Positions 7,277 through 49,375 of a stretch of DNA of 64,000 nucleotides are shown piece by piece; the first letter of the stretch is position 1; the number at the start of each line of letters is the position of its first letter. A program made the translations under genes and the position numbers. The stretch is taken from positions 13,791-77,790 of the forward strand of contig JACPBG010000003.1 in the NCBI GenBank assembly GCA_016180435.1, in the 5' to 3' direction. Below the pieces are notes generated by a model. That model was not told the DNA's origin, did not search any database, and saw nothing but the letters and a program-made list of their open reading frames with translations. The stretch comes from Candidatus Sungiibacteriota bacterium. Its GTDB lineage: Bacteria; Patescibacteriota; Minisyncoccia; Sungbacterales; HO2-52-23.

Positions 7277-7285
7277 TGCGGTCTT

Positions 7286-7482
7286 GCAATGTTATTTTGA
7301 AACACGGGCGGGCATCCAGCGATGCCCGCCCTAAGCATCCGGCGCGGCGCCGAGCGCTAAATTCTGAAATAGTATTCTTCGAGCTTGTCGAGAAGTCACC
7401 TTATTAAATGTATTTGTGTATTCGATTATTTAGCGCTCGGACCATGCCGCCGCGCCTTCTGATTGTTTTAAAATAACATTGC
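7286..7482. repeat. Palindromic MITE-like structured element, copy 1 (about 197 bp; terminal inverted repeats GCAATGTTATTTTGAAAC / GTTTTAAAATAACATTGC)
   Basis: Outer TIRs; an internal hairpin gggcgggcatccagcgatgcccgccc; a long internal inverted repeat gcatccggcgcggcgccgagcgctaaat / atttagcgctcggaccatgccgccgcgcc. It starts 10 nt after the stop of the upstream gene. Confidence 0.8.
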
Positions 7483-7556
7483 GATACCGCATCGTTCACT
7501 TTTAGAATTTTCTTGATGTAGCGCTATGTGCCGTCGTCACAATAAATTTCTTTATA

Positions 7557-7586
7557 TAAGCCATTTTTACGGCTTGATTTTTTATC
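7557..7586 (+). terminator. Rho-independent terminator-like hairpin (aagccatttttacggctt + T-run)
   Basis: Stem aagcc/ggctt followed by gatttttta, downstream of MITE copy 1. Confidence 0.45.
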
Positions 7587-11745: not shown

Positions 11746-11766
11746 GGGCGGTATTCCTCGGTAATA

Positions 11767-11950
11767 TGATTTTGAAACACATGCGGCCGTCCAGCGACGG
11801 CCGCATTAAGCATCCGGCGCGCGCCGAGCACTTAATTTATCAAAAATAGTTCCCGAGCTTGTCGAGGGACTACCTTTAGTGAAGTCAATACCGCAATCGT
11901 GGGTTGAGTGCTCGGACCATGCCGCGCGCCTTCTGATTGTTTCAAAATCA
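11767..11950. repeat. Palindromic MITE-like structured element, copy 2 (about 184 bp), homologous to 7286..7482
   Basis: TIRs tgattttgaaaca / tgtttcaaaatca; hairpin tgcggccgtccagcgacggccgca; internal IR ...ccgagcactta / ...gagtgctcgg. The stems differ from copy 1 by compensatory changes. Confidence 0.8.
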
Positions 11951-12004
11951 CATCACCTCGACCGCCCCACTCTGATATTTTATTAAAAGAAGATTTGCTA
12001 AATG

Positions 12005-12040
12005 TAGCTCAACGGAAACGTTGAGCTATCGATTTTGTTT
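12005..12040 (+). terminator. Rho-independent terminator (tagctcaacg-GAAA-cgttgagcta + T-run)
   Basis: Perfect 10-bp stem with a GNRA loop, followed by tcgattttgttt. Confidence 0.55.
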
Positions 12041-12383: not shown

Positions 12384-12878
12384 TTATATGAGAAAATAAA
12401 CCGCGATTAAAAGAATGGCAAGTTGAAATGGGACGCCAATCAGGGGGTAGGGTCCGAGGCGGATTCGGGTGTGCATGCGATTATGGAAGCGGTGGACGGG
12501 TTCAAGAAATTTTAATCCGAGAATCGTATAAACTCCTTGTAAAAAATCAGGAAGGCAGCTGCCTACAGCGGCAAGTCCCATCCAAATTATGGTTTCAAAC
12601 GACACGGGTCCGACGATGAACCACATTAAAGCAAGTCCCAAAGTCCCGTCCAGTGACATTTTTATGAAATCCCCGCCAAACTTCGGATGGCGAATACTGA
12701 TTTTTTTTACATTCGTCGATTCATCTCTTTCGGGCGAGTGAAGTTCATAATCCCAATGAGGGATGGCATCGGATAGATAGTGTGTTGCGAGTGCAATAAC
12801 AAAAGTAAGCGCAGGATGGACATGCGCGATAGGCCGGGTTATGGCGGCGGCAATGGCTATATGGGTGGTAAGGGTCAT
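12384..12878 (-). CDS. Membrane-bound metal-dependent hydrolase-like protein (YdjM/DUF457-like)
   Basis: Multi-TM protein with the motif HYLSDAIPHWDY (H...D...H). Confidence 0.45.
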   Translation of the reverse strand: MTLTTHIAIAAAITRPIAHVHPALTFVIALATHYLSDAIPHWDYELHSPERDESTNVKKISIRHPKFGGDFIKMSLDGTLGLALMWFIVGPVSFETIIWMGLAAVGSCLPDFLQGVYTILGLKFLEPVHRFHNRMHTRIRLGPYPLIGVPFQLAILLIAVYFLI

Positions 12879-12965
12879 GAAGACAAATTTTCAATTTTTA
12901 ATTATCAATTTCCAAACAAATAAAGTATAACATTATTAGATAAAAAAAGAAGCGCTGGTGGGCGC

Positions 12966-17497: not shown

Positions 17498-20400
17498 ATG
17501 CGCTATTTTCCCCACAAAATAGAAAAAAAGTGGCAAAAAATTTGGCTGAAAATGGAAATCTATGAACCCGACATCAAGAAAACCAAAAAGCCGTTTTATA
17601 ATTTAATGATGTTTCCGTATCCTTCCGCCGAAGGACTGCATGTTGGGAATATGTACGCGTTTACCGGCGCGGATATTTATGGTCGTTTTATGCGGATGCG
17701 GGGGCGTGATGTTTTTGAGCCGATCGGCCTTGATGGTTTCGGGATCCATTCGGAAAATTTTGCCATGAAAATTGGGAGGCACCCGGCGGATCAGGCCAAA
17801 ATTTCGGAGAAAAATTTTTACCGTCAGCTTGAGGCGCTTGGAAACGGGTTTGCTTGGTGTGAACGGCTTGAAACATATAACCCCGAATATTATAAATGGA
17901 CCCAATGGATTTTTGTGCAAATGTTTAAACGCGGCCTTGCCTATCGCAAAAAGCAGGCAGTGAATTGGTGTCCCAACTGCAAAACAGTGCTTGCGGATGA
18001 GCAGGTCATACAGAAATCCGAAATCCGAAATCCGAAATCCGAAACAAATTCGAAATTCGAAATTCCCGCCGGAGGCGAGGCTCGCTCGGGGCGGCAAAAT
18101 TCAAAACAAAAAATCACGATTGGCGTATGCGAACGATGCGATACGCCGGTGATTAAAAAAGAACTGGAGCAATGGTTTTTCAAAATAACGGATTATGCCG
18201 AGCGGCTTCTCGGAAATCTTGCAAAACTTGATTGGTCGGAGCGCGTCAAAATCGCGCAAAAAAACTGGATCGGGAAATCCGAGGGCGCTTTAATCAAATT
18301 TCCAATTTCCAATTTCCAATTTCCAATTAAGGATCTTGATTTTGTATTTATCCATGGATATAAAGGCGATTCACGGGATATTTTTTGGCCATGGTTTAGA
18401 AAAGAAATCGAACGTAGAGGCGCTAAGGTCTTTGCCCCCGACTTGCCCAATTCAGATGCGCCTAATATAAATGAACAGGTTCAATATGTTTTAAAGCAAC
18501 ATTCATTTAGCGAAAAGACCGTTATTGTGACTCACTCTTTGGGGGGCGTGGTTGCTATGAAATTATTGCCTTTATTGCACGATAAAATAGAACGGCTTTT
18601 GCTGGTGGCACCGCCTCTTCGGACGGAATTTCTGGATGGAAAAAAACGCCCGGCTTTAGAGGACGCTTGTGATTGGAAATTCAATTTTAATGAAATTAAA
18701 AAACACGCGAGGAATATTAGTGTTTTAGCAGATACGGAAGATCATGTTGTGTCCTTGGATCAACTCGTAGAAATTGCCGGACAGCTTAATGCCAGATTAC
18801 GGAAAACTGTGGCGAGTGCCCCGCATTTTAGAGAAATTGTAGAGCCGGAAATCGTAAACGAATTGTTTCCGGAAATTGAGATTTTTACCACGCGGCCGGA
18901 CACGCTTTTTGGAGCAACGTACCTCGTACTCTCGCCAGAGTACGAGGAAATTTCCAATTTCCAATTTCCAATTTCCAATCGCGGGGAAGTTGACGAATAT
19001 ATTAAAAATACGAAAGCTAAAACCGAGGAGGAAAGAATTTCCGAAGGCAGAGAAAAAACCGGAGTTGAATTAAAAGGAATAAAAGTTATAAATCCGGTAA
19101 ACGGCGAGGAAATCCCGGTGTGGGTTGCGGATTATGTTTTGGGCGGAGTGGGGATGGGCGCTATTATGGCGGTTCCGGCGCATGATGAGCGCGATTTTGA
19201 GTTCGCGAAAAAACACGATTTGCCGATTAAGACAGTCGTCGAATCATTCTACATTCAAAAAGAGGAACCGGGCGTATATAGAGAAAATGAATCAATCGTA
19301 CCGCGGGACGGGATAATTACAATTATCAAGCATTGGTCTGAAGATAAATATATTGGTCTTAAATGGAAAAAGGTTGCCTGGGGAACATTTCTTACGGGTG
19401 GCATAGAGAAAGGGCAAACCGCGGAACAGGCCGGAGTTGCTGAAATTTTGGAAGAAACAGGATATCTTCACCCCAAGTTTATTCGAGAACTTGGCATAAC
19501 GCACGGGCTTTTTTATCACGTTCCCAAAAAAGAGAATCGTCTTGTGCATGCACATATTCTCTATTTTGAATTGCAGGATGGGGCCCGGACCGAGATATCC
19601 GAAAAAGAGCAAGAGATTCATGATATAAAATGGTTGACTCTAAAAGAGCTTAAATCTTTCCTTACCCCCGCTACTCATACTTATGCCCTTGATTTATTTA
19701 GGGAGGGAATAAAAGTATATACGGGCGGGGGAATTCTTTGTAATTCCGGAGAATTCAACGGTATGGATTCAGAAAAGGCCAAATTGGAAATTACGAAATT
19801 CGTCTGCGGAGAGCGTAAAATTCAGTATCGCTTGCGGGATTGGTTGATTTCGCGACAAAGGTATTGGGGACCTCCAATTCCAATGATTTTTTGCGAGAGC
19901 TGCAAAAAATCACTGGAAAATTCCAAATTCTCGAAAGGAGAATTAGAAAATCCCGGATGGACAGCGGTGCCGGAAAAGGATTTGCCGGTAAAATTGCCGT
20001 ATGTGAAAAATTTCCGGCCGACCGGTACGGACAAATCACCCCTTGCCACTGTTAAAAAATTTTACAAAGTTCGCTGTCCCAAATGTAAATCTTGGGCTCG
20101 TAGGGAAACCGATGTTTCGGACACTTTCCTGGATTCGGCATGGTATTATTTACGCTATCCGAGCGTAAAAATGCAAAATTCAAAAATCAAAATGCAAAAT
20201 GAAAATTCAAAATCTAAAAATATAGAAATTCCTTGGAATTCGGAAATTACTAAAAAATGGACACCGGTGAACATGTACATAGGCGGAGCAGAACATTCTG
20301 TGCTTCATCTTCTTTACTCTCGTTTTTTAGCAATGGCGTTTAAGGATTGGGGATTGACGCATTTTGAAGAACCATTCACAAAATTTCGCGCGCATGGGCT

Positions 20401-21121
20401 TTTGATAAAAGACGGAACGAAGATGTCAAAGTCCAGGGGGAATGTGGTCAATCCGGATGAGTATATTAGAGCGTATGGCGCGGATGCTCTGCGTATGTAT
20501 TTGATGTTTTTGGGGCCGTTTGAGCAGGGCGGGGATTTTCGGGATGACGGGATCAGGGGAATAACACGGTTTTTGGAGAGAGCATACAAACTAATTTCCA
20601 ATTTCCAAAATCCAATTTCCAAACAAATTCCAAATTCAAAATCACAAATTCAAAAAATATTACACCAGACAATTAAGAAAGTAACGGAAGATATTGAGAA
20701 CCTGCAATACAATACGGCGATTTCGGCTTTAATGATACTTTTGAATAAGTTTGAAGAAAATCCGTCCGCAGTTACTAAAGAACACGTTTCAATATTTTTG
20801 CGATTGTTGGCTCCGGTTGCGCCCTTCATAACGGAGGAATTGTGGAGTATGTTTCCTACAAACTACAAACTACAAGCTACAAGCGTACATAAAAATAAGT
20901 GGCCGGAATATGACCCGAAATTGATTCAAGAAGACACGTTTGAGCTGGTGGTCCAGATAAACGGCAAAGTGCGGGACAAATTTGAGGCTCCGATTGATGT
21001 CTCTGAAGATAATGCAACCCGTTTGACTTTGGGGCGGGAGAGGGTTAAGAGTATAGTTGGAACCTTAAAACCGCGTAGGATTATTTTTGTCCCGAAGCGG
21101 TTGATAAATATCGTGATTTAG
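17498..21121 (+). CDS. leuS: Leucyl-tRNA synthetase carrying two extra inserted domains in one continuous ORF: an alpha/beta serine hydrolase (about 18329-18830) and a Nudix-like domain (about 19290-19720)
   Basis: LeuRS motifs: PYPSAEGLHVGN (HIGH-type), TTRPDTLFGATYLV, AVPAHDERDFEFA (editing Asp), NSGEFNGMD, YRLRDWLISRQRYWGPPIP and KMSKSRGNVVNP. The insert FIHGYKGD...THSLGG (GxSxG) resembles a YdeN/RBBP9-type hydrolase. The insert GGIEKGQTAEQAGVAEILEETGY is a Nudix-box-like sequence in which E is replaced by Q and R by A. At least six in-frame repeat insertions are present. Confidence 0.9.
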   Translation: MRYFPHKIEKKWQKIWLKMEIYEPDIKKTKKPFYNLMMFPYPSAEGLHVGNMYAFTGADIYGRFMRMRGRDVFEPIGLDGFGIHSENFAMKIGRHPADQAKISEKNFYRQLEALGNGFAWCERLETYNPEYYKWTQWIFVQMFKRGLAYRKKQAVNWCPNCKTVLADEQVIQKSEIRNPKSETNSKFEIPAGGEARSGRQNSKQKITIGVCERCDTPVIKKELEQWFFKITDYAERLLGNLAKLDWSERVKIAQKNWIGKSEGALIKFPISNFQFPIKDLDFVFIHGYKGDSRDIFWPWFRKEIERRGAKVFAPDLPNSDAPNINEQVQYVLKQHSFSEKTVIVTHSLGGVVAMKLLPLLHDKIERLLLVAPPLRTEFLDGKKRPALEDACDWKFNFNEIKKHARNISVLADTEDHVVSLDQLVEIAGQLNARLRKTVASAPHFREIVEPEIVNELFPEIEIFTTRPDTLFGATYLVLSPEYEEISNFQFPISNRGEVDEYIKNTKAKTEEERISEGREKTGVELKGIKVINPVNGEEIPVWVADYVLGGVGMGAIMAVPAHDERDFEFAKKHDLPIKTVVESFYIQKEEPGVYRENESIVPRDGIITIIKHWSEDKYIGLKWKKVAWGTFLTGGIEKGQTAEQAGVAEILEETGYLHPKFIRELGITHGLFYHVPKKENRLVHAHILYFELQDGARTEISEKEQEIHDIKWLTLKELKSFLTPATHTYALDLFREGIKVYTGGGILCNSGEFNGMDSEKAKLEITKFVCGERKIQYRLRDWLISRQRYWGPPIPMIFCESCKKSLENSKFSKGELENPGWTAVPEKDLPVKLPYVKNFRPTGTDKSPLATVKKFYKVRCPKCKSWARRETDVSDTFLDSAWYYLRYPSVKMQNSKIKMQNENSKSKNIEIPWNSEITKKWTPVNMYIGGAEHSVLHLLYSRFLAMAFKDWGLTHFEEPFTKFRAHGLLIKDGTKMSKSRGNVVNPDEYIRAYGADALRMYLMFLGPFEQGGDFRDDGIRGITRFLERAYKLISNFQNPISKQIPNSKSQIQKILHQTIKKVTEDIENLQYNTAISALMILLNKFEENPSAVTKEHVSIFLRLLAPVAPFITEELWSMFPTNYKLQATSVHKNKWPEYDPKLIQEDTFELVVQINGKVRDKFEAPIDVSEDNATRLTLGRERVKSIVGTLKPRRIIFVPKRLINIVI
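18013..18064. repeat. In-frame GAAATCC/GAAATTC heptad repeat in leuS (IQKSEIRNPKSETNSKFEIP)
   Basis: gaaatccgaaatccgaaatccgaaatccgaaacaaattcgaaattcgaaattcc. Confidence 0.8.
18065..18098. repeat. GGCGAGGCTCGC palindromic element copy in leuS (cccgccggaggcgaggctcgctcggggcggcaaaa; AGGEARSGRQ)
   Basis: About 90% identical to the metG copy at 14598-14633. Confidence 0.85.
18297..18328. repeat. In-frame ATTTCCA repeat x4 in leuS (FPISNFQFPIKD)
   Basis: aatttccaatttccaatttccaatttccaatt. Confidence 0.8.
18949..18980. repeat. In-frame ATTTCCA repeat x4 in leuS (ISNFQFPISN), preceded by an 11-bp inverted repeat cctcgtactct/agagtacgagg (18922-18948)
   Basis: atttccaatttccaatttccaatttccaatcg. Confidence 0.8.
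20168..20222. repeat. In-frame AAAATGCAAAAT/TTCAAAA repeat in leuS (KMQNSKIKMQNENSKSKN)
   Basis: aaaatgcaaaattcaaaaatcaaaatgcaaaatgaaaattcaaaatctaaaaa. Confidence 0.75.
20594..20655. repeat. In-frame TTTCCAA/ATTCAAA repeat in leuS (ISNFQNPISKQIPNSKSQIQKI)
   Basis: atttccaatttccaaaatccaatttccaaacaaattccaaattcaaaatcacaaattcaaaaa. Confidence 0.8.
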
Positions 21122-21785: not shown

Positions 21786-21990
21786 TATGGGCGGTTGAGG
21801 ATGTTTGATTTTAGACAATGGGAGGATTAGTTTGTTAGGTTCTCCGCCGCAGGCGGATTCAATAAGAAAATTCTCCAAGCGAGTCACAGGCGGAATTTAG
21901 CATTTTGCTTTTAAGGCAATGGGAGGATAAGTTTGCATGGTTTCTGCCGCAGGCGGATACAATACGAAAACCCATAAACGAGCTAATCAT
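21786..21990. repeat. Family-B structured repeat (two tandem units containing ttttagacaatgggagg ... ccgccgcaggcgg ... gagtcacag)
   Basis: Shares the motifs gggcggttgaggatgtttgattttagacaatgggagg with 41380-41420 and 47375-47395. Confidence 0.7.
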
Positions 21991-34884: not shown

Positions 34885-35147
34885 CGGTTATCGGCAATTC
34901 TTTTTACAGACACGCAAAAATTTCCCTGCGAGAAATTTTTCTCAGGATCCGGCATTGCTCTCCCGCCTTTAGCGGGATCCATGCCCGCAATGTCTCATCA
35001 TGGTCTGTAAAAAGAATTGCCGATAACCGCATTTATTTTGCTATAAGGTTTTCGTAATGTAACCGGCATTTGCCGGTTTTTTTGATTGACATAAAAAAGC
35101 AAGCGTGTTACTAATGGATATAGATCTTTAATGTTGAGGATGAATCT

Positions 35148-37351: not shown

Positions 37352-38722
37352 ATGGCAATGCAATATAAAAACGTAAAAAAATATGATAGGGAGATTTATA
37401 ATCTTATCCGTGAAGAAGAACGAAGGCAGAAAGATGGGTTGGAACTTATCCCTTCGGAAAGTTACGCATCCGCCGCTGTGCTTGAGGCCCTGGGCAGTAT
37501 TTTGAATGACAAATATGCGGAGAATTATCCGGGAAAACGCTATTACGGCGGGTGCGAGACCGTGGATAAGGTGGAACGGTTGTGCCAGGAACGCGCCTTA
37601 AAAGTTTTTCGCGCGCAAGGATACAAAGTAAATGTCCAGCCCTATTCCGGAAGTCCGGCCAATATTGAGGTGTATGCGGGATTGCTTGATTTTGGAGATA
37701 CGATCATGGCTTTGCGCTTGGATCATGGCGGCCACTTGACCCACGGTTCTCCGGTAAGTTTTTCAGGTAAGGCATACAAATTTATTCATTATGGAGTTGA
37801 TCCAAAAACTGAATGTCTTGATTATGACGAAATTGCGCGGCTCGCCCAAAAACATAAGCCCAAAATTATTCTTTCCGGATTTACCGCCTATCCGCGGCTG
37901 ATAGATTTTAAAAAAATGCACGCGATTGCAAAATCTGTCGGCGCAATTTCCATGGCGGACATTTCGCATATTTCGGGACTTATCATCGGCGGCGCTCATC
38001 CCTCGCCTTTTCCGTTCACGGATGTGGTGACAACTACTACGCATAAAACCCTGCGCGGTCCGCGCGCGGCTATGATATTTTCTCGAAAAGATAAAAGTAT
38101 AAAGATAAAAGATAAAAACGTCTTGATTTCTGAAGCTATTGATAAGGCAGTTTTCCCCGGCATGCAGGGCGGGCCGCATGAGCACACGATCGCGGCAATT
38201 GCCGTGGCTTTGCACGAGGCAAAAAAACCGGAATTCAGAAAATTTGCGGAGCAGGTGGTTAAAAATGCCAAAGTACTTGCCATAGCCATCCAAAAAGAAG
38301 GACTCCGTTTAATTTCGGGGGGAACCGATAATCATCTGATGTTAATTGATTTACGGCCGTTTGGCCCGGGTAGGGGAAAATTTATTGAAAAAGCATTGGA
38401 GGCAGTACGTATTAGTGTAAACAAAAGTCCTATTCCCAATGACCCTTCGCCGCCGTTTTATCCGTCCGGAGTCCGTCTGGGCACCCCGGCGATAACCAGC
38501 CGCGGCATGAAAGAAAAAGAAATGCGTGTTATTGCGGGATTTATCGCGCGTGTGGTGCGGGAATTTTCGCACGTCATACTGCCGGAGGAAAAATCCGAGC
38601 GCGCCACGGCGGTACGTGAATTTACCCAGAAACTTTCTCGCAGCCAATTTGTCAAAAAAATAGGTAGTGAGGTTAAACAGTTCGCATCAAGATTTCCGGT
38701 CCCGGGGATTGACACGAAATAA
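37352..38722 (+). CDS. glyA: Serine hydroxymethyltransferase
   Basis: SHMT motifs (LIPSENY-type N-terminus, PLP-Lys region TTTTHKTLRGPR). Has an in-frame AAAGATAAAAG repeat at 38086-38116 (KDKSIKIKDKN). Confidence 0.95.
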   Translation: MAMQYKNVKKYDREIYNLIREEERRQKDGLELIPSESYASAAVLEALGSILNDKYAENYPGKRYYGGCETVDKVERLCQERALKVFRAQGYKVNVQPYSGSPANIEVYAGLLDFGDTIMALRLDHGGHLTHGSPVSFSGKAYKFIHYGVDPKTECLDYDEIARLAQKHKPKIILSGFTAYPRLIDFKKMHAIAKSVGAISMADISHISGLIIGGAHPSPFPFTDVVTTTTHKTLRGPRAAMIFSRKDKSIKIKDKNVLISEAIDKAVFPGMQGGPHEHTIAAIAVALHEAKKPEFRKFAEQVVKNAKVLAIAIQKEGLRLISGGTDNHLMLIDLRPFGPGRGKFIEKALEAVRISVNKSPIPNDPSPPFYPSGVRLGTPAITSRGMKEKEMRVIAGFIARVVREFSHVILPEEKSERATAVREFTQKLSRSQFVKKIGSEVKQFASRFPVPGIDTK

Positions 38723-38783
38723 TCAGTATGTTACGTATAAACACATAAGTTCTTTATAGATTTTTTGCGTAGATGGTAGCAAT

Positions 38784-39071
38784 ATGAAGAAGCGGACATT
38801 CATGATGTTGGTTGCGATCTTTCTTCTTGTGCCGATTGGCAGTTTTGGGCAAAATAAGCCGGTTGATATCTGTATTTCAGTAATTGATATGCAGATCGTC
38901 CCGGTTGCACGAATTCCTTTCTTCGGTGGGCAAGTGCTTGTAGGAGGGCGTCGCTATCAATTGCCCGACGGCAGGATCATCGAAATTCCCATTCCAGTCT
39001 TTCCGGAACACATGAAAATCGGATCAGATGGATTGCCCCTTTATTGCGGGCCACACAAAGTAGTGAAATAA
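38784..39071 (+). CDS. Small secreted hypothetical protein (95 aa)
   Basis: Signal peptide; preceded by the repeated promoter-bearing 60-mer gattgacacgaaataatcagtatgttacgtataaacacataagttcttt (38700-38755). Confidence 0.4.
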   Translation: MKKRTFMMLVAIFLLVPIGSFGQNKPVDICISVIDMQIVPVARIPFFGGQVLVGGRRYQLPDGRIIEIPIPVFPEHMKIGSDGLPLYCGPHKVVK

Positions 39072-39128
39072 AGGAAGCCATTTGCGCTTCCTATTTTATT
39101 TGACCCATTTTGCGGCTAATGATATTAT
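39072..39128 (+). promoter_or_regulatory. Terminator-promoter cassette (hairpin aggaagccatttgcgcttcct + T-run, then TTGACC-N17-TATTAT)
   Basis: An identical 70-nt block recurs at 39947-40003; a variant terminator half lies at 41172-41201. Confidence 0.6.
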
Positions 39129-39135
39129 AAAAAAT

Positions 39136-39369
39136 ATGAATGTTATTACTATTCCAAAAGGAGAATTTGTGGTTATTCCGCGTAAGGACTACGAGGAACT
39201 TACTGAACTAAAAAAATGGATTCCAGTAGTTAAACCCACCCGGGGTGAGTTACGGGTTATACGGCGCGGTGAGCGGGAGATTGCACGTGGCGAGTACGTT
39301 TCGTGGTCAAAGGTAAAATATGAACTGGAACGCCGTCTTAACCGAAGTCGCAATAAAGCATCTGGATAA
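39136..39369 (+). CDS. Type II antitoxin (Phd/YefM-like N-terminus), cassette 1
   Basis: The ATG lies 8 nt downstream of the -10; MNVITIPKGEFVVIPRKDYEEL; the gene overlaps the downstream toxin. Confidence 0.5.
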   Translation: MNVITIPKGEFVVIPRKDYEELTELKKWIPVVKPTRGELRVIRRGEREIARGEYVSWSKVKYELERRLNRSRNKASG

Positions 39370-39577
39370 AATTCCGGCGCATGATGTCAAGGCAATTAAA
39401 ATAGTTATACAGCAGATGGAGGAGAATCCATATCTTGGTGATATTGTAAAGCTGGGGGGAGAAAATAATCGTTGGCGAAGACGCGCCGGAAATTATCGCC
39501 TTATGTATAACATTCTTTCCAAAGAAAGGATTATTTTTATTTATGATATTCGACGGCGTACCAGCAATACGTATTAA
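39320..39577 (+). CDS. RelE/ParE-family toxin, cassette 1
   Basis: C-terminus GNYRLMYNI...IIFIYDIRRRTSNTY matches the RelE/ParE motif (GnYRiiY.i.d....v.i..i.hR). 85 aa. Confidence 0.6.
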   Translation: MNWNAVLTEVAIKHLDKIPAHDVKAIKIVIQQMEENPYLGDIVKLGGENNRWRRRAGNYRLMYNILSKERIIFIYDIRRRTSNTY

Positions 39578-39690
39578 AACGTTTCTTTTGACTGAAAAGA
39601 TTTGCCTCCAAATTTCCAGTTCCGGGGATTGACACGAAATAATCAGTATGTTACGTATAAACACATAAGTTCTTTGCATCGGAGGTAATT

Positions 39691-39948
39691 GTGGCTTCCC
39701 AAATACGCATTTTTTTGAAAAGTGCTTACTTTATTTTATGCGTTGATGCTATCGCACAAGGCGGGATTGTATCACTTCTGGTTTTTCGGGATCCCGCCCA
39801 ACTTTCGTATAGCCACGGCTGGGACGTATTTGCGCGGGCATTGTTTCTTTTAATGAGCATATGTTCGGCCGCGGGAGTGTCCATTTTGTGTTTTGCGTTC
39901 TTTTTCTCTTTTACATCGCTCTATAAAAGAGCATTTTTAATCAGTTAG
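39691..39948 (+). CDS. Small membrane protein (85 aa, GTG start)
   Basis: GGAGG 8 nt upstream of a GTG; two or three TM segments. Preceded by the second copy of the gattgacacgaaataatcag... 60-mer (39620-39676). Confidence 0.35.
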   Translation: MASQIRIFLKSAYFILCVDAIAQGGIVSLLVFRDPAQLSYSHGWDVFARALFLLMSICSAAGVSILCFAFFFSFTSLYKRAFLIS

Positions 39949-40010
39949 GAAGCCATTTGCGCTTCCTATTTTATTTGACCCATTTTGCGGCTAATGATAT
40001 TATAAAAAAT

Positions 40011-40247
40011 ATGAATGTGGTTACTATTCCTCAAAAATTAGCGCAGAAAGGTGATTTGGTAGTAGTCCCTCGGCGGGAATATGAGGCGCTTTTACGCAGG
40101 CAGCCCAAACTTATTCCAGTCATAAAGTTGACCCCTCTTGAAATGCGGGCTATTGAAAAAAGCGAGAAAGAACTTGCACGCGGGGATTATGTAACTTTAG
40201 ATGAATTAGAACATGAGTTGGGAAGTGCGAATACCAAAAAACGTTAG
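40011..40247 (+). CDS. Type II antitoxin, cassette 2 (paralogue of 39136..39369)
   Basis: Identical promoter/5' leader; MNVVTIPQKLAQKGDLVVVPRREYEALL. Confidence 0.5.
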   Translation: MNVVTIPQKLAQKGDLVVVPRREYEALLRRQPKLIPVIKLTPLEMRAIEKSEKELARGDYVTLDELEHELGSANTKKR

Positions 40248-40470
40248 GAAATGTATCAAGCGATTCCCCAAGGAAGATCGCGAACGCGTGATTGAAACGC
40301 TTCGCGATTTTGTTATTGATCCGTGGCGCGGGGATATCGCCAAAATTGGCGAAAAGGACAATTTATGGCGCCGACGGATCGGTAATTATCGCATTTCTTA
40401 CTCCATATTTATAAATTTGAACGTTGTTGAAATTAAAGACATTAAAAGGCGTACCAGCAATACGTATTAA
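40213..40470 (+). CDS. RelE/ParE-family toxin, cassette 2
   Basis: GNYRISYSI...VVEIKDIKRRTSNTY; identical C-terminus and 3' flank (taaaacgtttcttttgactgaaaagatttgcctccaaatttccagttccggg) to cassette 1. Confidence 0.6.
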   Translation: MSWEVRIPKNVRKCIKRFPKEDRERVIETLRDFVIDPWRGDIAKIGEKDNLWRRRIGNYRISYSIFINLNVVEIKDIKRRTSNTY

Positions 40471-40609
40471 AACGTTTCTTTTGACTGAAAAGATTTGCCT
40501 CCAAATTTCCAGTTCCGGGAATCTGACCCGATTTTATTGACACCGGAACGGTTTAAATGCTATAAGTAGTTAAAGTTCTTTGCAATTTGTTTAGAGAAAG
40601 GAAAGAGTT

Positions 40610-41164: not shown

Positions 41165-41401
41165 AATATAAAGGAAGCCCTCGCGCTTCCTATTTTATTT
41201 GATTTTATGCAAATTTTATGCTATTTAAAGGTAGTGTAATGTATCAGGCGTGAAGCGCTACACTAAGAAAATTTTAAGTGAGTCAAAACGGTTGAGGCGT
41301 TTTGTTTTCGAAGCGATGGGGGGCGTTAAATCATGTTTTCCGCCTTAGGCGGACACAATAAGAAAATATCTAAGCGGAGTCATGGGCGGTTGAGGATGTT
41401 T

Positions 41402-41509
41402 GATTTTAGACAATGGGAGGTCCGATTTGCTTGGTTCCGCCGAAGGCGGAAAATCGGACTGACCTTTAGTGAGGCGGCCGCTGGGAGCCGCCGAATCGTG
41501 TCTAAAATC
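41402..41509. repeat. Family-B structured element, compact copy (closing stem gattttagaca/tgtctaaaatc with nested stems), 33 nt upstream of folD
   Basis: An 11-bp closing helix; nested helices gtccgattt/aaatcggac, ccgcc/ggcgg and gcggcc...gccgcc. The homologue at 47375-47614 has compensatory changes (ggcggc/gccgcc versus ggccgc/gcggcc). Confidence 0.7.
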
Positions 41510-41541
41510 AAATATCCGAAAACCGCCATACGAAGCGATCT

Positions 41542-42399
41542 ATGATTTTACTTGACGGGAAAAAACTGGCGGAAAAAATTCTGGATGAGGTGAAAAAGGA
41601 TGTTGCGGGATTGGATGAAAAACCGCGTCTGGCTATTGTGCTGGTGGGCAAAAATACGGCCATTGAGAAATTTATTGAACAAAAAAAGAAGGCCGCGAAG
41701 TCGGTCGGTATTGACGTGTGCATATATCCGTTTGATCAGGCCATAAGTACGAACGAACTCCGTAAGCGTCTTTCCGAAATAGTGCATGAGAAAAAAAATA
41801 CCGGTGTGATTGTGCAGTTACCTTTGCCGGAACAAATTCATGTTCAGTATATTTTAAATGCCATTACGCCCGAAAAAGATGTGGATGTATTATCTTCCCG
41901 CGCGATTGGGAATTTTTCCACCGGACGAAGCAAAATCATGCCGCCGGTTGCAGGCGCCATAAAAGCACTGTTTGAGGAATACGGAATTGATTATAAAAAT
42001 AAGCATGTAGTAATTTTGGGCGCCGGAAATCTGGTTGGAAAGCCGACGGCATTATGGTTGCTCAATGAAAAGGCGACATTTAGCGTTATACGCAGTTCCA
42101 CTCGGCATCCGGAAGAATTTTTGCAGCAAGCCGATATAATAATATCCGGAATCGGTAAACCGGGATTTATCACGGGAAACATGATAAAGGACGGCGCGGT
42201 TTTAATAGATGCCGGAACTTCGGAATCCGAAGGCCCCTCGACCGGGCTCGGGGTAAAAAAATTAGTTGGTGACGTTGATTTTGAGTCAGTTGCCGCCAAA
42301 TGTTCATTTCTTACTCCGGTTCCGGGTGGCGTAGGTCCACTGACAGTTGCGCTACTTTTTAAAAATTTAGTTGCGATATCCCCCCATGAATATCCTTGA
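41542..42399 (+). CDS. folD: Bifunctional methylenetetrahydrofolate dehydrogenase/cyclohydrolase
   Basis: MILLDGKKLAEKI, VQLPLP, ILGAGNLVGKP, and GGVGPLTVA FolD motifs. Confidence 0.95.
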   Translation: MILLDGKKLAEKILDEVKKDVAGLDEKPRLAIVLVGKNTAIEKFIEQKKKAAKSVGIDVCIYPFDQAISTNELRKRLSEIVHEKKNTGVIVQLPLPEQIHVQYILNAITPEKDVDVLSSRAIGNFSTGRSKIMPPVAGAIKALFEEYGIDYKNKHVVILGAGNLVGKPTALWLLNEKATFSVIRSSTRHPEEFLQQADIIISGIGKPGFITGNMIKDGAVLIDAGTSESEGPSTGLGVKKLVGDVDFESVAAKCSFLTPVPGGVGPLTVALLFKNLVAISPHEYP

Positions 42400-43927: not shown

Positions 43928-44010
43928 GGGCGAGTGGCGGAATGGTTTACGCGCACGACTCAAAATCGTGTGGTCGAAAGGCCGTGTGGGTTCGAATCCC
44001 ACCTCGCCCA
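43928..44010 (+). tRNA. tRNA-Leu (anticodon CAA), class II with a long variable arm; CCA not encoded
   Basis: Acceptor stem GGGCGAG/CTCGCCC with discriminator A; anticodon stem-loop CACGA-CTCAAAA-TCGTG (anticodon CAA); variable arm TGGTCGAAAGGCCGTGT; T-arm GTGGG-TTCGAAT-CCCAC. Confidence 0.85.
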
Positions 44011-44993: not shown

Positions 44994-46028
44994 ATGGAGT
45001 CATTAGGAAGAGGTCTTGAATCCTTAATTCCCGATAGGGGGCCGGAAGAAATTCCGGCGGATTTGGGCGCGGAAAATAGTGAGGATAAAATTACTCCGGA
45101 ATCCGAACACAATTTAACTGCCAGGGCGGGAACGCCCGCATCTCCTCTGGCATCGCTCGGCGCGTCACAGCGCGCTACTTTTCATGATAATTTCCAGCCC
45201 AAAAAAACCGATTCGGTTTTTTGGATTGAAATAGATAAGATTGAATCCAACCCTTATCAGCCGCGCCGCGAATTTAACGAGGGCGCGTTGAAGGATCTCG
45301 CCATGTCCATACGCGAGCATGGATTATTGCAGCCGATTTTGGTTTCCAAGCAAGAGATCGAGACCCAAACCGGACTGGATGTCAGGTATCAATTGATTGC
45401 TGGAGAAAGAAGGTGGCGCGCGGCGACGCTTGCCGGACTTTCGCAAATTCCGGCTGTGATCAGGCGCGGCGTGCCGGATAATCGCCTGAAATTGGAATTG
45501 GCTTTGATTGAAAATGTTCAGCGTGAGGACTTAAATCCCATGGAGCGCGCGCGGGCCTTCAAGCAATTAGTTGATGAGTTCCATCTGATGCAAAAAGAAA
45601 TTGCCGAGCGTATTGGCAAATCGCGCGAAACCGTGGCCAACACTTTAAGGCTTTTAACCCTTCCTGCAGACATCCAGCAAGGGTTGCATGAGGGGCGTAT
45701 TACCGAGGGACATGCGCGCGCGGTTTTAATTGCCGGGGATGATCAAACCAAACAATTTGAAGTATATAATGCGATCTTAATGGATCGTTTGAATGTGCGC
45801 GAGGCGGAAAATCGCGCACGGCATGTGTCCGGCAAAGCGTTTACCCCGCGCAAGCGCCCTTCGGCAGTGCAGGACCCGGAACTTCGCCGTTGGCAGAATG
45901 AATTGCAGGAGCGTTTGGGAACCAAAGTGCGTTTGGAAAAATTGGGCGACCGCGGAAAAATTATTGTTGAGTTCTATTCCGACGAAGAGCTTCAAGGGCT
46001 GTTGGGCAAATTAATACACGAAACATAA
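44994..46028 (+). CDS. parB: ParB/Spo0J partition protein
   Basis: ParB box IEIDKIESNPYQPRREF, GLLQPILV, HTH region, and C-terminal dimerisation segment. Has an N-terminal low-complexity extension. Confidence 0.9.
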   Translation: MESLGRGLESLIPDRGPEEIPADLGAENSEDKITPESEHNLTARAGTPASPLASLGASQRATFHDNFQPKKTDSVFWIEIDKIESNPYQPRREFNEGALKDLAMSIREHGLLQPILVSKQEIETQTGLDVRYQLIAGERRWRAATLAGLSQIPAVIRRGVPDNRLKLELALIENVQREDLNPMERARAFKQLVDEFHLMQKEIAERIGKSRETVANTLRLLTLPADIQQGLHEGRITEGHARAVLIAGDDQTKQFEVYNAILMDRLNVREAENRARHVSGKAFTPRKRPSAVQDPELRRWQNELQERLGTKVRLEKLGDRGKIIVEFYSDEELQGLLGKLIHET

Positions 46029-46161
46029 ATTTGATGGCGGAATTTTATCCCCACACCAAATTTGGTGTGGGGGTTTGTTTGGATGAGGAACTTAGGGGAA
46101 TACTTGACAAATTGATCAGAGAGGTGTAGATTTATTGTGGTTCATTGCTGGGAGTTTATTT

Positions 46162-46751: not shown

Positions 46752-46885
46752 GGATTTATTAATTTGGGTGTAAGCGCGGAAAAATCATGACTGAGTTTTA
46801 TTCGGATGAGGAACTAAGAGGCATACTTGACAAATTAATAAGGGAGGTGTAATCTGTGTGTAGCTATTTGGAAAGGTGAATCGCA

Positions 46886-47248: not shown

Positions 47249-47374
47249 CAGTTCGGTCCTCGGGCCGATTTTTTATAGTTTAAATAATAGCCAGGCTCAA
47301 AGCCCTACCTGTCGGTAGGTAGGGCTACCATAAGCAAACCTTTTAAGCGAGCGTTGCGGCCGAAGGTATTTTCT

Positions 47375-47614
47375 ATTTTAGACAATGGGAGGATAAAATT
47401 GCTTGCCCCGCACCAAATTTTGACTGCCGCTTTCGTTTCCATCCAAGCAAATATGAACATCTGTTAAGAAATACAGAATATGTCCCGCCAGCTTATTCGA
47501 GGTGGCACGGAAACGGTCAAAATTTTGATGACGGGGCTTGGCTTGTGCGAAGCGCAAAAATTTGTCCGACCCTTAGCGAGGCCGCCGCAGGAGCGGCCGA
47601 GACGTGTCTAAAAT
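47375..47614. repeat. Family-B structured element, long copy, downstream of relA
   Basis: attttagaca...tgtctaaaat closing stem; shares the gaggcCgccgc...gcggCcga stem (compensated relative to the 41-kb copy) and the gagtcacag motif. Confidence 0.65.
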
Positions 47615-47644
47615 AGGAAATACCCGAGAAGCCGCATCAGCGAG

Positions 47645-49375
47645 TCACAGTAATTTATAACTTACATCCTCAATCCCTTTTATCCCCTTTAATCTCACCA
47701 TCATTTTTTCCACCTCGGTTTTATTTTTAAATCCCTCGGCATGTATTAGAAGCGCCGCCCATTTTTGATTTTTGGTGTCGGTATCCACTTTTTTTATATT
47801 TATTTTGTGTTTGGCCAGCATGTGGGTTACGTCGCGTAACAGTCCCACCCGGTCGCGGATCGTCAGGTTGAATTCCACTGTTTCTCCGCCGCGTTTTTCG
47901 AATTTTTTATCCCCCTCGGAATGTTTAAGAAAAGAACTTATTTTTTTACGCGCCTGCGCGCTTTTTACTATTTTCAGCCAATCGCGGCTCGGTTTTTTGT
48001 TTTTCTGTTTTAAGATTTCCACAATGTCCCCGTTTTTCAGGATATGATCCAAGGCAACCATTTTTCCGTTGATTTTGGCGCCGACTGCGGTGTTTCCAAT
48101 ATCGGAATGCACATGATACGCAAAATCAATGGGCGTAGATCCTTCCGGCAGATCAAAGGCATCGCCTTTGGGAGTCAGGACAAAAATCCTATCTTTGAAA
48201 AAATCGATTTTTAGCGCCTCCAAAAATTCCTCCGGTTTTTCAAATTCCTTTTGCCATTCGCGTAGCTGCTCAATCCAGGCAAAGTGCCGCGCATTTATTT
48301 TGGAGGAGCGCCCTTCGGCATACGCCTGGGTGTCGCGGCGTTTCATTTCCGAATATGCCCAATGCGCGGCAATTCCGAATTCCGCTTCTCCATGCATTTC
48401 TGGCGTTCGTATCTGAATTTCTATCGGACGCTCTTCATGGCCGATTACGGTGGTATGAAGCGAGCGATAGCCGTTGGGCTTGGGAAGCGCAATATAATCT
48501 TTGATGCGCCCGGGTAGGGGTTTCCAGAGTTTATGTATTACGCCAAGCGTCGCGTAGCAATCTTCAATTGTAGGCACAATGATGCGCAGCGCCACTATAT
48601 CCGTGATTTTTCTTACATCCATGCCATAACGCAGAAGTTTTTTGTAGAGCGAATAATAATGCTTGGCGCGCGCATTTATTCCGGTGAAAGGAATTCTTTC
48701 TTTCACAAGCTCCTCGGTAAGCACCGGTTTTATCCGCTCGACATATTTTCGCCAATCCTCATAGGTTTCTTTGGCCTCTTTCATAAGCCATTCGTATTCC
48801 GAAGAATACACATGGGGGAAAGACAGATCCTCCAATTTTCCCGAAAGATCCGCCATGCCGAGGCGATAAGCCAGGGGCGCGTAAATTTCCAGGGTTTCCA
48901 ACGCAATCCGTTTTTGTTTTTCCGGCGGCAGATGAGAAAGAGTTTGCATATTATGGAAACGGTCCACGAGTTTCAGTAAAACCACGCGAATATCTTCGCC
49001 GATTGCCAGAAACATTTTACGCAAGCTCTCGGCCGAGCGTTCGGTGCCGCGGTATCTTATTTTATCCAGTTTGGTGACTCCTTGAACCAGAAACGCAATT
49101 TCGTCTCCGAATTCTTTGCGTATGTCTTTAATCGAGTGGTACGTATCTTCGCATACGTCGTGCAGGAGCGCGGCGGCAATGGTGGAGGAGTCAAGATGCA
49201 TGTCAACGAGTTCAGATGCGGTTGCCAGGGGATGGGATATATATGGGTCGCCGGATTTCCGTTTTTGTTCTCCATGGGCTTTGGCGGCAAAATCGTAGGC
49301 GCGTTTAATCAACATCAGGTCCTCTGCGGAGCGCGCCTGCGCTTTTATTTTTTCGAAAAGATTTTGCGCGGTCAT
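47645..49375 (-). CDS. relA: Bifunctional (p)ppGpp synthetase/hydrolase RelA/SpoT
   Basis: HD domain (HD...DVCED), synthetase domain (RIKDYIALPKPNGYRSLHTTV), TGS and ACT domains. Start placed at MTAQNLFEKIKA; the longer ORF from 49669 would run into topA. Confidence 0.9.
   Translation of the reverse strand: MTAQNLFEKIKAQARSAEDLMLIKRAYDFAAKAHGEQKRKSGDPYISHPLATASELVDMHLDSSTIAAALLHDVCEDTYHSIKDIRKEFGDEIAFLVQGVTKLDKIRYRGTERSAESLRKMFLAIGEDIRVVLLKLVDRFHNMQTLSHLPPEKQKRIALETLEIYAPLAYRLGMADLSGKLEDLSFPHVYSSEYEWLMKEAKETYEDWRKYVERIKPVLTEELVKERIPFTGINARAKHYYSLYKKLLRYGMDVRKITDIVALRIIVPTIEDCYATLGVIHKLWKPLPGRIKDYIALPKPNGYRSLHTTVIGHEERPIEIQIRTPEMHGEAEFGIAAHWAYSEMKRRDTQAYAEGRSSKINARHFAWIEQLREWQKEFEKPEEFLEALKIDFFKDRIFVLTPKGDAFDLPEGSTPIDFAYHVHSDIGNTAVGAKINGKMVALDHILKNGDIVEILKQKNKKPSRDWLKIVKSAQARKKISSFLKHSEGDKKFEKRGGETVEFNLTIRDRVGLLRDVTHMLAKHKINIKKVDTDTKNQKWAALLIHAEGFKNKTEVEKMMVRLKGIKGIEDVSYKLL

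Follow-up and report, generated by a model that had tools for sequence, protein, structure and literature searches.

What is the compact, self-complementary sequence found just upstream of folD in a Candidatus Sungiibacteriota bacterium, and is it one of a kind? It lies in a 64,000-nt stretch of contig JACPBG010000003.1 (GenBank assembly GCA_016180435.1), which was analyzed as a whole and is referred to here as the window. An original prediction, made from the letters alone, had marked positions 41402-41509 as a structured repeat, possibly a mobile element or a family of small RNAs (sRNAs). We found that it belongs to a previously uncatalogued family of elements, 120-215 nt long, present in Parcubacteria-type genomes of the candidate phyla radiation (CPR), the copies of which are individually maintained by compensatory evolution. 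The main rule of the family, missed in the original prediction, is that the element adjoins the stop codon of a convergent gene. The family is new, and nearest to it in kind are the bacterial interspersed structured repeats or the orphan structured noncoding RNAs (ncRNAs).

The copy next to folD (copy A) contains all four helices that had been proposed, each at the place assigned to it: gattttagaca/tgtctaaaatc is the inner part of the closing helix (P1), gtccgattt/aaatcggac is P2, ccgcc-gaa-ggcgg is P3, and ggcggc...gccgcc is P4. The extent given to the structure was too short, though, since 41402-41509 is merely the core of a 143-nt element (Table 1). Likewise, the 11-bp closing stem exists but forms only the inner part of a 19-bp P1, itself extended by an outer helix, P0, with a tandem G.A loop between the two. 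As RNA, the 112 nt from 41400 to 41511 fold with -53.4 kcal/mol (z = -6.0 against 200 dinucleotide shuffles), and the 17-mer TTTTAGACAATGGGAGG, the 5' motif, occurs four times in the window at ≤3 mismatches, compared with 0.18 expected. Copy A comes after the terminator of the upstream gene (41172-41191) and ends 14 nt before the folD ATG (41542), on the same strand as both neighbors. In this it is atypical, being among the ca. 20% of copies that share their strand with the downstream gene. Five contigs of the same organism in the short-read Logan assemblies (L001 to L005) have their first base within copy A, at a distance of 113 or 75 nt from folD on its upstream side (window positions ca. 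41429 and 41467), which fits assembly breaks caused by the repeat. The window derives from an organism of a groundwater-type metagenome, and its folD protein has matches only on short Logan contigs, broken within the repeat.

Two covariance models were built in turn from aligned copies (R1, then R2). Pattern and model searches together recovered ca. 90 distinct copies in groundwater metagenomes and in three metagenome-assembled genomes (MAGs) of candidate phyla, and the structural alignment comprises 72 distinct copies. A family had thus been rightly suspected, and it extends well beyond the window. A degenerate pattern scanned against the GTDB species genomes gave nine stretches, about what chance would produce. 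Model scores confirmed five of them, three from Parcubacteria GW2011_GWA2_45_30 and one each from an unclassified “bacterium” MAG and a MAG labelled Saccharibacteria; the other four, from other phyla, obtained no model score. With a second pattern, in which P1 was left unconstrained, 116 metagenome stretches were retrieved, one of which (L064) was discarded as a chance match. R1 gave 101 matches at E<0.01 on 85 loci, several of which hold two or three copies per 10-15 kb. No Rfam family matches the element: at the gathering thresholds of Rfam 15 a tRNA alone passes across the window, and permissive scans (E up to 10) of 41200-41560 and 47300-47680 returned chance-level matches to microRNAs, snoRNAs, and CRISPR direct repeats, with 13-18 bits. 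We found no copies in IMG/VR with two patterns (the two matches were due to chance, in coding DNA and without a covariance model score) and none in INPHARED or PLSDB, and a phage or plasmid origin was rejected on these grounds. Full-text literature searches retrieved no description of the element.

The consensus fold, derived from the 72 copies by RNAalifold and by a direct count of pairs, is a three-way junction made up of P1, a P2/P3 arm, and P4; this joint folding, which the original prediction had put forward as a check, also established through double-sided compensatory changes that the structured repeat is genuine. P1 has 16 modelled pairs, usually 19 bp in full, with UUUUNAGACA/UGUCUNAAAA as the consensus of its inner part, and is joined by AU (J1/2) to P2, which contains GGG/CCC, an A/GA internal loop, and an 8-nt bulge, GCUUGGUU. 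P3 is a variable cap, UUA (J2/4) leads to P4, with a CGAG/CGAG tandem-G.A base and a CGCNGGA loop, and a single G (J4/1) leads back to P1. Hardly any variation is seen in the bases of the junction, bulge, and loop (CAAUGGGAGG, UUGCUUGGUU, GACCCUUAGCGAG, CGCNGGA, and CGUGU), and CGAG/CGAG tandem-G.A blocks recur across the copies. Beyond P1, the element is closed by an NGAG/CGAN tandem-G.A block with covarying outer pairs and, sometimes, by the further helix P0. It should be noted that the conservation of CAATGGGAGG, TTG, and GACCYTTAG arises partly by construction, since the search pattern fixed them, while the bulge, the P4 loop, CGUGU, and all the helices are independent of it. Standard pairs occupy 93.4% of the 3,220 pair cells, and changes on both sides were found in 33 of the 45 pairs. 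The covariation score reached 0.637; shuffles gave 0.187 (none of 500 reached 0.637), and slid partners no more than 0.16. In 12 pairs of close relatives, 85-98.5% identical, the stems show 21 double changes against 2.7 expected, 19 of which keep the pairing, and this excess indicates ongoing selection on the structure. A small open reading frame (ORF), suggested by the resemblance of GGGAGG-N6-UUG to a Shine-Dalgarno sequence and start, was rejected because the lengths of P3 and P4 vary out of frame and the stems covary. A k-turn reading of the CGAG blocks was dismissed by inspection, with no 3-nt bulge adjoining the G.A pairs.

The nonstandard pairs reveal which strand folds. Paired columns hold 92 G.U against 31 A.C and 120 G.A/A.G against 7 C.U/U.C, and the G.A/A.G mismatches almost always form NGAG/CGAN blocks; in P1 of copy E, only the minus strand has the G.U pairs. 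In 62 of 72 copies, the aligned strand folds more stably than the complement (mean of -4.7 kcal/mol, p=1.5e-10), and the complement still folds, with a mean of -51.5 kcal/mol. From both asymmetries, in the pairs and in the stability, it follows that the fold is selected on one strand, the plus strand in the case of copy A.

Searched with R2 and all filters off, the window has five confident full copies and no more, i.e., ca. one per 13 kb (Table 1). Two had been seen before, the compact copy A and a long copy (B); the three extra ones (C, D, and E) are on the minus strand. Two subfamilies coexist within this genome, with cores CAAUGGGAGG...CCGACCCUUAG and CAAUCAGAAGG...CCGGAUGCUUAG, and their differences include a compensated change of GGG/CCC to GAU/AUC. 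“Mini” variants at 7289-7375 and 11764-11849 were rejected, being by R2 full copies with a long P3. Copy B does share the closing stem with copy A, and the swap in its last helix, from GGCGGC/GCCGCC to GGCCGC/GCGGCC, is borne out by the sequence, but its extra length belongs to a separate, nested insertion of 131 nt. CTTG is found on either side of this insertion (47402-05 and 47537-40), and a homologous stretch stands free, outside any copy, in another contig (L103, 181-290), which suggests a distinct family in these genomes that resembles miniature inverted-repeat transposable elements (MITEs). The syntenic copy beside relA in GW2011_GWA2_45_30 (L007) is intact and compact. In addition to the full copies, the partial units noted earlier at 21786-21990 and ca. 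41246-41400 are indeed copies of the 5' half, with 74-85% identity across 47-84 nt. A search for repeats connects the segments 41390-41436, 47362-47408, 21795-21841, and 21896-21942. The units at 21786-21990, 146 nt upstream of a glmS-like gene, carry the 5' strand of P0/P1, CAATGGGAGG, P2, the P3 hairpin, the linker, and AAGCGAG, and lack P4 and the 3' strand of P1; the unit at 41246-41384, like copy A, stands after the terminator at 41172-41191. This is a common arrangement in the family, as at least one 3'-truncated unit (P0/P1 5' strand, junction, P2, P3, linker, and AAGCGAG) precedes many full copies on their own strand.

Table 1. Copies of the element, their parts, and associated sequences, by position in the window unless a contig is named
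Feature	Position	Strand	Score	Remarks
Copy A, full compact element, 143 nt	41385-41527	+	R1 112.8 bits, E=6.5e-25; R2 114.9 bits	
Copy A, core by R2	41397-41514	+	114.9 bits	
Copy A, P0 (outer helix)	41385-41391/41521-41527	+		
Copy A, P1 (closing helix)	41394-41412/41499-41517	+		19 bp
Copy A, J1/2	41413-14	+		AU
Copy A, P2	41415-41428/41451-41465	+		Bulge GCUUGGUU at 41429-36
Copy A, P3 hairpin	41437-41449	+		
Copy A, J2/4	41466-68	+		UUA
Copy A, P4	41469-41497	+		Loop CGCUGGGA
Copy B (long copy)	47345-47644	+	R2 55.3 bits (47515-47620), 15.1 bits (47369-47478)	Normal copy split by nested insertion
Copy B, core by R2	47515-47620	+	55.3 bits	3' part only
Copy B, closure	47345-51	+		AAGCGAG
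Copy B, P0	47356-61/47631-35	+		
Copy B, P1	47365-84/47605-24	+		
Copy B, 3' closure	47640-44	+		GCGAG
Insertion nested in copy B, 131 nt	47406-47536	+		Hairpin-bounded, in GCUUGG bulge; ends CCCCGCACCAAATTTTGAC, GTCAAAATTTTGATGACGGGG
Copy C	34885-35029	-	R2 74.8 bits, E=3.7e-15	Divergent, GGG/CCC to GAU/AUC; core 34897-35017
Gene-sense tail of copy C	35030-35088	+		Linker UUUUGCUAUAAGGUUUUCGUAAUGUA, then intrinsic terminator (hairpin 35061-35078 and U run)
Copy D	7277-7491	-	R2 80.3 bits, E=1.9e-16	Subfamily 2, P3 expanded by 77 nt; core 7289-7479
Copy E	11746-11968	-	R2 71.6 bits, E=2e-14	Subfamily 2, expanded P3; core 11764-11953
Degenerate 3'-truncated unit	41246-41384	+		TTTTCGAAGCGATGGGGGG ... 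CCGCCTTAGGCGG, then linker ACAATAAGAAAAT-N-TAAGCGGAG; upstream of copy A; repeat families D8, D11
Two tandem 3'-truncated units	21786-21990	+	R2 14.6 bits only	Repeat families D4, D8, D11
GUAGC-hairpin examples	7512-7530; 12004-12040; 35055-35088; contig L103, 296-330			
12-nt identity with retron-Eco1	41462-41473 (alignment A2, columns 78-90); contig L131, 1501-1670			ACCCUUAGCGAG

The position of the element relative to genes follows a rule. Downstream of the folded strand, 49 of 61 nonredundant loci have a convergent neighbor, on the opposite strand; upstream, the neighbor is on the opposite strand in 35 cases and on the same strand in 28. The stop codon of the convergent gene usually falls 0-4 nt beyond the closing helix, and the four antisense-oriented copies of the window (B, C, D, and E) all touch a stop codon. 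The 3' closure of copy B directly adjoins the complement of the relA stop codon (TCA, 47645-47), and the 27-bp outer helix of copy C begins one base past the TAG (34882-84) of a plus-strand gene that is dCTP-deaminase-like by Pfam. In copies D and E, P0 begins one base past the TGA (7274-76) of the plus-strand gene 5360-7276 and the TAG (11743-45) of an AI-2E-transporter gene, respectively. Read in the direction of the gene, the stop codon is followed by the complement of the element and by a conserved linker (UUUUCUUAAGGUA-like), after which comes either the start of the next gene or a GUAGC-hairpin with a U run. Tails equivalent to that of copy C are located at 7492-7586 and 11969-12040, and gene-sense terminators were called at 35061-35078 and 7557-7576. 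In the family, such a terminator is found ≤180 nt away in 28 of 78 copies, and GUAGC followed by a hairpin was detected on the gene-sense strand of 22 of 81 copies (9.7 in shuffles) and in only 3 in the other orientation. This conserved ...UUCUUAAG-GUAGC-hairpin, often with a U run, lies past the element at a fixed distance (24-40 nt) and doubles as the terminator of the gene. Sense-oriented copies end 3-14 nt before start codons, that of folD for example, so the fold is tolerated in the 5' leaders of essential genes.

On both sides, the neighbors are functionally unrelated housekeeping genes (among them those of PBPs, RecA, MreB, trigger factor, DnaK, ClpP, FtsW, UvrD, and SufB), and no transposase, integrase, or reverse transcriptase (RT) family recurs among them; an associated protein gene was accordingly rejected. 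These unrelated neighbors, together with the opposite-strand downstream gene in most loci, uphold the earlier judgment against a classical riboswitch. A dependence of orientation on the replication strand was rejected as well. Along the entire window GC skew is positive, and yet the copies point in both directions, following the adjacent gene, and for this reason the orientation of the copy at 47.4 kb can be said to track its gene and not the replication strand. Over all the loci where both rules conflict, the gene rule holds in 8 and the skew rule in 4, a weak result because local skew is confounded by gene orientation.

What the element does is a matter of weighing several readings. We tentatively favor, as possible and short of probable, the one in which the folded strand is RNA, a closed-end module read by a conserved partner at the 3' boundary of the neighboring gene. 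The folded strand would be transcribed as RNA antisense to the 3' end of the gene or, in the minority of sense-oriented copies such as that of folD, as part of a 5' leader. Paired termini and an invariant junction would give a stable, closed module, recognized by a conserved trans-acting protein, or possibly itself catalytic, that would act in cis by controlling the mRNA 3' end or by limiting antisense transcription, and it would sense no metabolite. In its favor we count the covariation, the strand asymmetry of the pairs and of the stability, the spread and placement of the copies, the unrelated neighbors, the paired and covarying ends, and the lack of an Rfam match. Several observations weigh against this reading. 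There is no folded-strand intrinsic terminator, i.e., no U run after P1, the 3' strand of which is A-rich and followed by CGAG and the stop codon of the neighbor, and canonical terminators are found solely on the gene-sense strand, beyond the element. Sigma-70-like promoters upstream of the folded strand are neither enriched (47 of 78 copies versus 49.9 in shuffles) nor clustered in position, and a dedicated promoter was rejected; operon-internal copies, just ca. 20-30 nt from the start of the next gene, have no space for it. At no fewer than one third of the loci, the gene has its intrinsic terminator beyond the element, and therefore the one transcript sure to be made there contains the complement and not the fold itself. 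The sense-oriented copies, so close to start codons, imply that the fold is no strong terminator on its own strand. No protein partner was found among the neighboring gene families, and the molecule that folds could be DNA, given that single strands of DNA also accommodate G.T and tandem G.A pairs stably. A module acting in the mRNA itself, in the 3' untranslated region or between cistrons (as a barrier to 3' exonucleases, a site of processing by RNase III, or a “ribosome termination structure” by which the translation of neighboring cistrons is insulated or coupled), would account for the location of the element within the transcription unit of the gene, between its stop codon and its intrinsic terminator or the next start, and for the zero spacing to the stop codon; its 19-27-bp helices would bring the stop of one gene beside the start region of the next, and the complement does fold. 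Stable structures right after stop codons are known as ribosome termination structures (PMC7518266). We consider this improbable: the non-Watson-Crick pairs are on the wrong strand and become 92 C.A and 120 C.U mismatches in the mRNA, which folds less well in 62 of 72 copies, ca. 20% of copies are reversed, in 5' leaders, and a generic stabilizer has no need of an invariant three-way-junction core. A cis-regulatory leader of folD and glmS, be it a riboswitch or a protein-binding leader, is very improbable and is largely refuted for the family. An effect of copy A on the translation of folD, put forward in the original prediction, is conjectural and would come from an atypical copy. Copy A does end 14 nt, and other sense copies 3-7 nt, before start codons, but sense copies are no more than ca. 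20% of the total, the adjacent genes have no common pathway, the units near glmS lack half of the fold, and there is no expression platform (neither a terminator nor a sequestered Shine-Dalgarno sequence).

The element could also be a selfish or domesticated interspersed repeat similar to the REPs and REPINs, with a fold that a transposase or recombinase, the product of a single gene elsewhere in the genome, would recognize as single-stranded DNA (or in an RNA intermediate). In that case, preferential insertion, selection against harmful orientations, and the deletion of spacers from streamlined genomes would have produced the antisense bias and the abutment to stop codons. The high copy density speaks for it, as do recent paralogues of a single genome (L007 and L010, from LCKU01) with identical P0, P1, and P2, the 3'-truncated tandem units upstream of full copies at many loci, the nested insertion of another small element in copy B, the short-read contigs of the same organism that break within the repeat, and the missing promoter; DNA hairpins tolerate G.T and G.A pairs, and the excess of GUAGC-hairpins recalls the GTAG-plus-palindrome of REPs. 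Even so, this reading, the main rival of the RNA module, appears somewhat less likely. Copies in one genome differ in every helix yet pair, and compensated double changes are in excess among close relatives, which implies selection at individual loci; the synteny beside relA is kept across genomes; and there is no target-site duplication, as the flanks pair as NGAG/CGAN blocks with covarying outer pairs (UGAG/CGAA and CGAA/UGAG). Homologues of RAYT and RT are absent from the 0.97 Mb formed by the window and the flanks of the copies (for RAYT, no match of E. coli RayT below E=1 by tblastn), no mobile-element family was seen among the neighbors, and no known hairpin substrate of a transposase comes near the complexity of a three-way junction with ca. 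40 invariant unpaired bases. By local GC skew, moreover, the folded strand is mostly on the leading-strand template, the opposite of the IS200/IS605 preference. As to the two natures first proposed for the repeat, the recent paralogues, the truncated units in tandem, and the nested insertions speak for mobility or duplication. Simple mobility is disfavored by diverged but compensated copies in conserved orthologous positions, without target-site duplications or transposase, and an ordinary sRNA gene by the lack of a dedicated promoter and terminator. Least probable of all is a circularly permuted, retron-like self-priming RNA copied by an RT in trans. Its appeal is that GACCCUUAGCGAG shares 12 consecutive bases (ACCCUUAGCGAG) with the msr of retron-Eco1 at the junction of the a1 end and the branching G, with equal three-helix topology and weaker matches in the same order (CUGGA; GAGU..UGUCU); in this conjectural mapping, P2/P3 would be the a1/a2 duplex, the G after UUA the branching G, P4 an msr hairpin, and P1/P0 the msd stem. 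The Ec86 sequence used for the comparison is present in E. coli B genomes with 100% identity. Against this reading, the Ec86 ncRNA is not recognized by R2 (the best hit, 9.5 bits, covers the msd hairpin only), tblastn with the Ec86 RT, run on the window and on every locus (0.97 Mb), found no homologue, and retron ncRNAs are single copy, next to their own RT. Set beside our preferred reading, of an RNA module at gene 3' boundaries, a broader claim appears more doubtful: that this is a new, CPR-specific functional nucleic-acid fold, either a catalytic or scaffolding RNA antisense to gene 3' ends or an attC-like folded single-stranded DNA, serving as a genome-wide gene-boundary device that marks the ends of many housekeeping genes in ultrasmall genomes.

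Comparison with known systems shows partial likeness to several of them. With the REP, BIME, and REPIN sequences of Enterobacteria and Pseudomonas the element shares the many extragenic copies, just past stop codons or between cistrons, the capacity to form hairpins with strand-asymmetric G.T pairs, and the absence of coding capacity, and the GUAGC-plus-hairpin beside a quarter of its copies resembles their GTAG-plus-palindrome. However, REPs are simple palindromes of 20-40 nt and REPINs simple hairpins that are nearly identical within a genome, whereas the element is a three-way junction of 120-215 nt with an invariant core and diverged but compensated helices, strictly antisense to the adjacent gene. 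As in the attC sites of integrons, the strand that folds is the complement of the one coding for the ORF before it, at its 3' end and at or next to the stop codon, and structure is kept while the stem sequence varies, within a similar length range. The core sites of attC, R'' and R', have the form RYYYAAC ... GTTRRRY. The element has no such boxes, its neighbors are core housekeeping genes instead of cassettes, without an integrase among their families, and attC sites lack a conserved three-way-junction core. The orphan ncRNA motifs (raiA, ROOL, GOLLD, and HEARO-type) are similar in their strong covariation, paired termini, lack of obvious function, and conserved junction and loop nucleotides, which imply tertiary structure or a partner, but they usually occur once or a few times per genome with their own transcription signals, in contrast to a dense element that has no detectable promoter or terminator on its strand and is bound by the stop-codon rule. 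Resemblance to the msr-msd of retron-Eco1/Ec86 consists of the three-helix junction and the 12-nt identity at the a1 end and priming G; the element differs in being multicopy, with no RT nearby, a circularly permuted helix order, and no covariance model match. Self-cleaving ribozymes (hammerhead, twister, twister-sister, pistol, and hatchet) are also compact multihelix junctions with invariant unpaired bases and several copies per genome in unrelated contexts, and none of their Rfam models matched the element even at E up to 10. P1 and P0 resemble the terminal inverted repeats of MITEs and other derivatives of insertion sequences, but the flanks pair instead of repeating, and no transposase was found among the neighbors. 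Finally, TIGR arrays, described as tandem 36-nt units with edge and loop repeats beside a Nop-domain Tas gene (PMC12045711), were rejected, as unit size and architecture do not fit that description and the element has no associated gene family.

CPR bacteria make up a large share of bacterial diversity and have tiny genomes, and most of them are uncultured; to our knowledge, almost nothing has been reported about their noncoding repertoire. Junk is an unlikely explanation for an element that occupies 120-215 nt behind many housekeeping genes of genomes so streamlined, with an invariant junction and a structure preserved by compensatory changes. A fold encoded opposite the gene that it touches is a rare strand logic, otherwise best known from integron attC sites, and its partner and function could reveal a new form of gene-boundary control, an RNA-protein complex or ribozyme, or a class of elements mobilized as single strands. 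The covariance model is ready for the annotation of CPR genomes, and the element explains assembly breaks in CPR metagenomes.

The window has other repeats. Runs of a AAATTCCAAATTCCAAA-type heptamer-like repeat (families D1 to D3) were found at 767-840, 1184-1257, 4092-4475, 12876-12921, 18287-18332, 18939-18984, and 20159-20688, most of them inside large ORF spans (e.g., a LeuRS-like gene), while that at 12876-12921 falls almost wholly outside the listed ORFs. A tandem duplication of ca. 875-920 bp with pairs of ca. 95-amino-acid ORFs (38681-40522; families D6, D7, and D9; 92-98% identical) may be a duplicated small two-gene module. The 20-nt segment GCGCTTCCTATTTTATTTGA appears three times (39084-39103, 39959-39978, and 41183-41202), the last time as the 3' arm and tail of the terminator hairpin at 41172-41191, just upstream of the region originally flagged. 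The 3' end of a ParB-like gene is partly repeated twice downstream, by short ORFs (45951-46016, 46074-46128, and 46775-46851; families D12 and D17; 73-85% identical). Between a 216-amino-acid ORF and parA, there is a tRNA with a long variable arm (43928-44010, 63.3 bits), the anticodon loop of which, CUCAAAA, suggests a tRNA-Leu(CAA).

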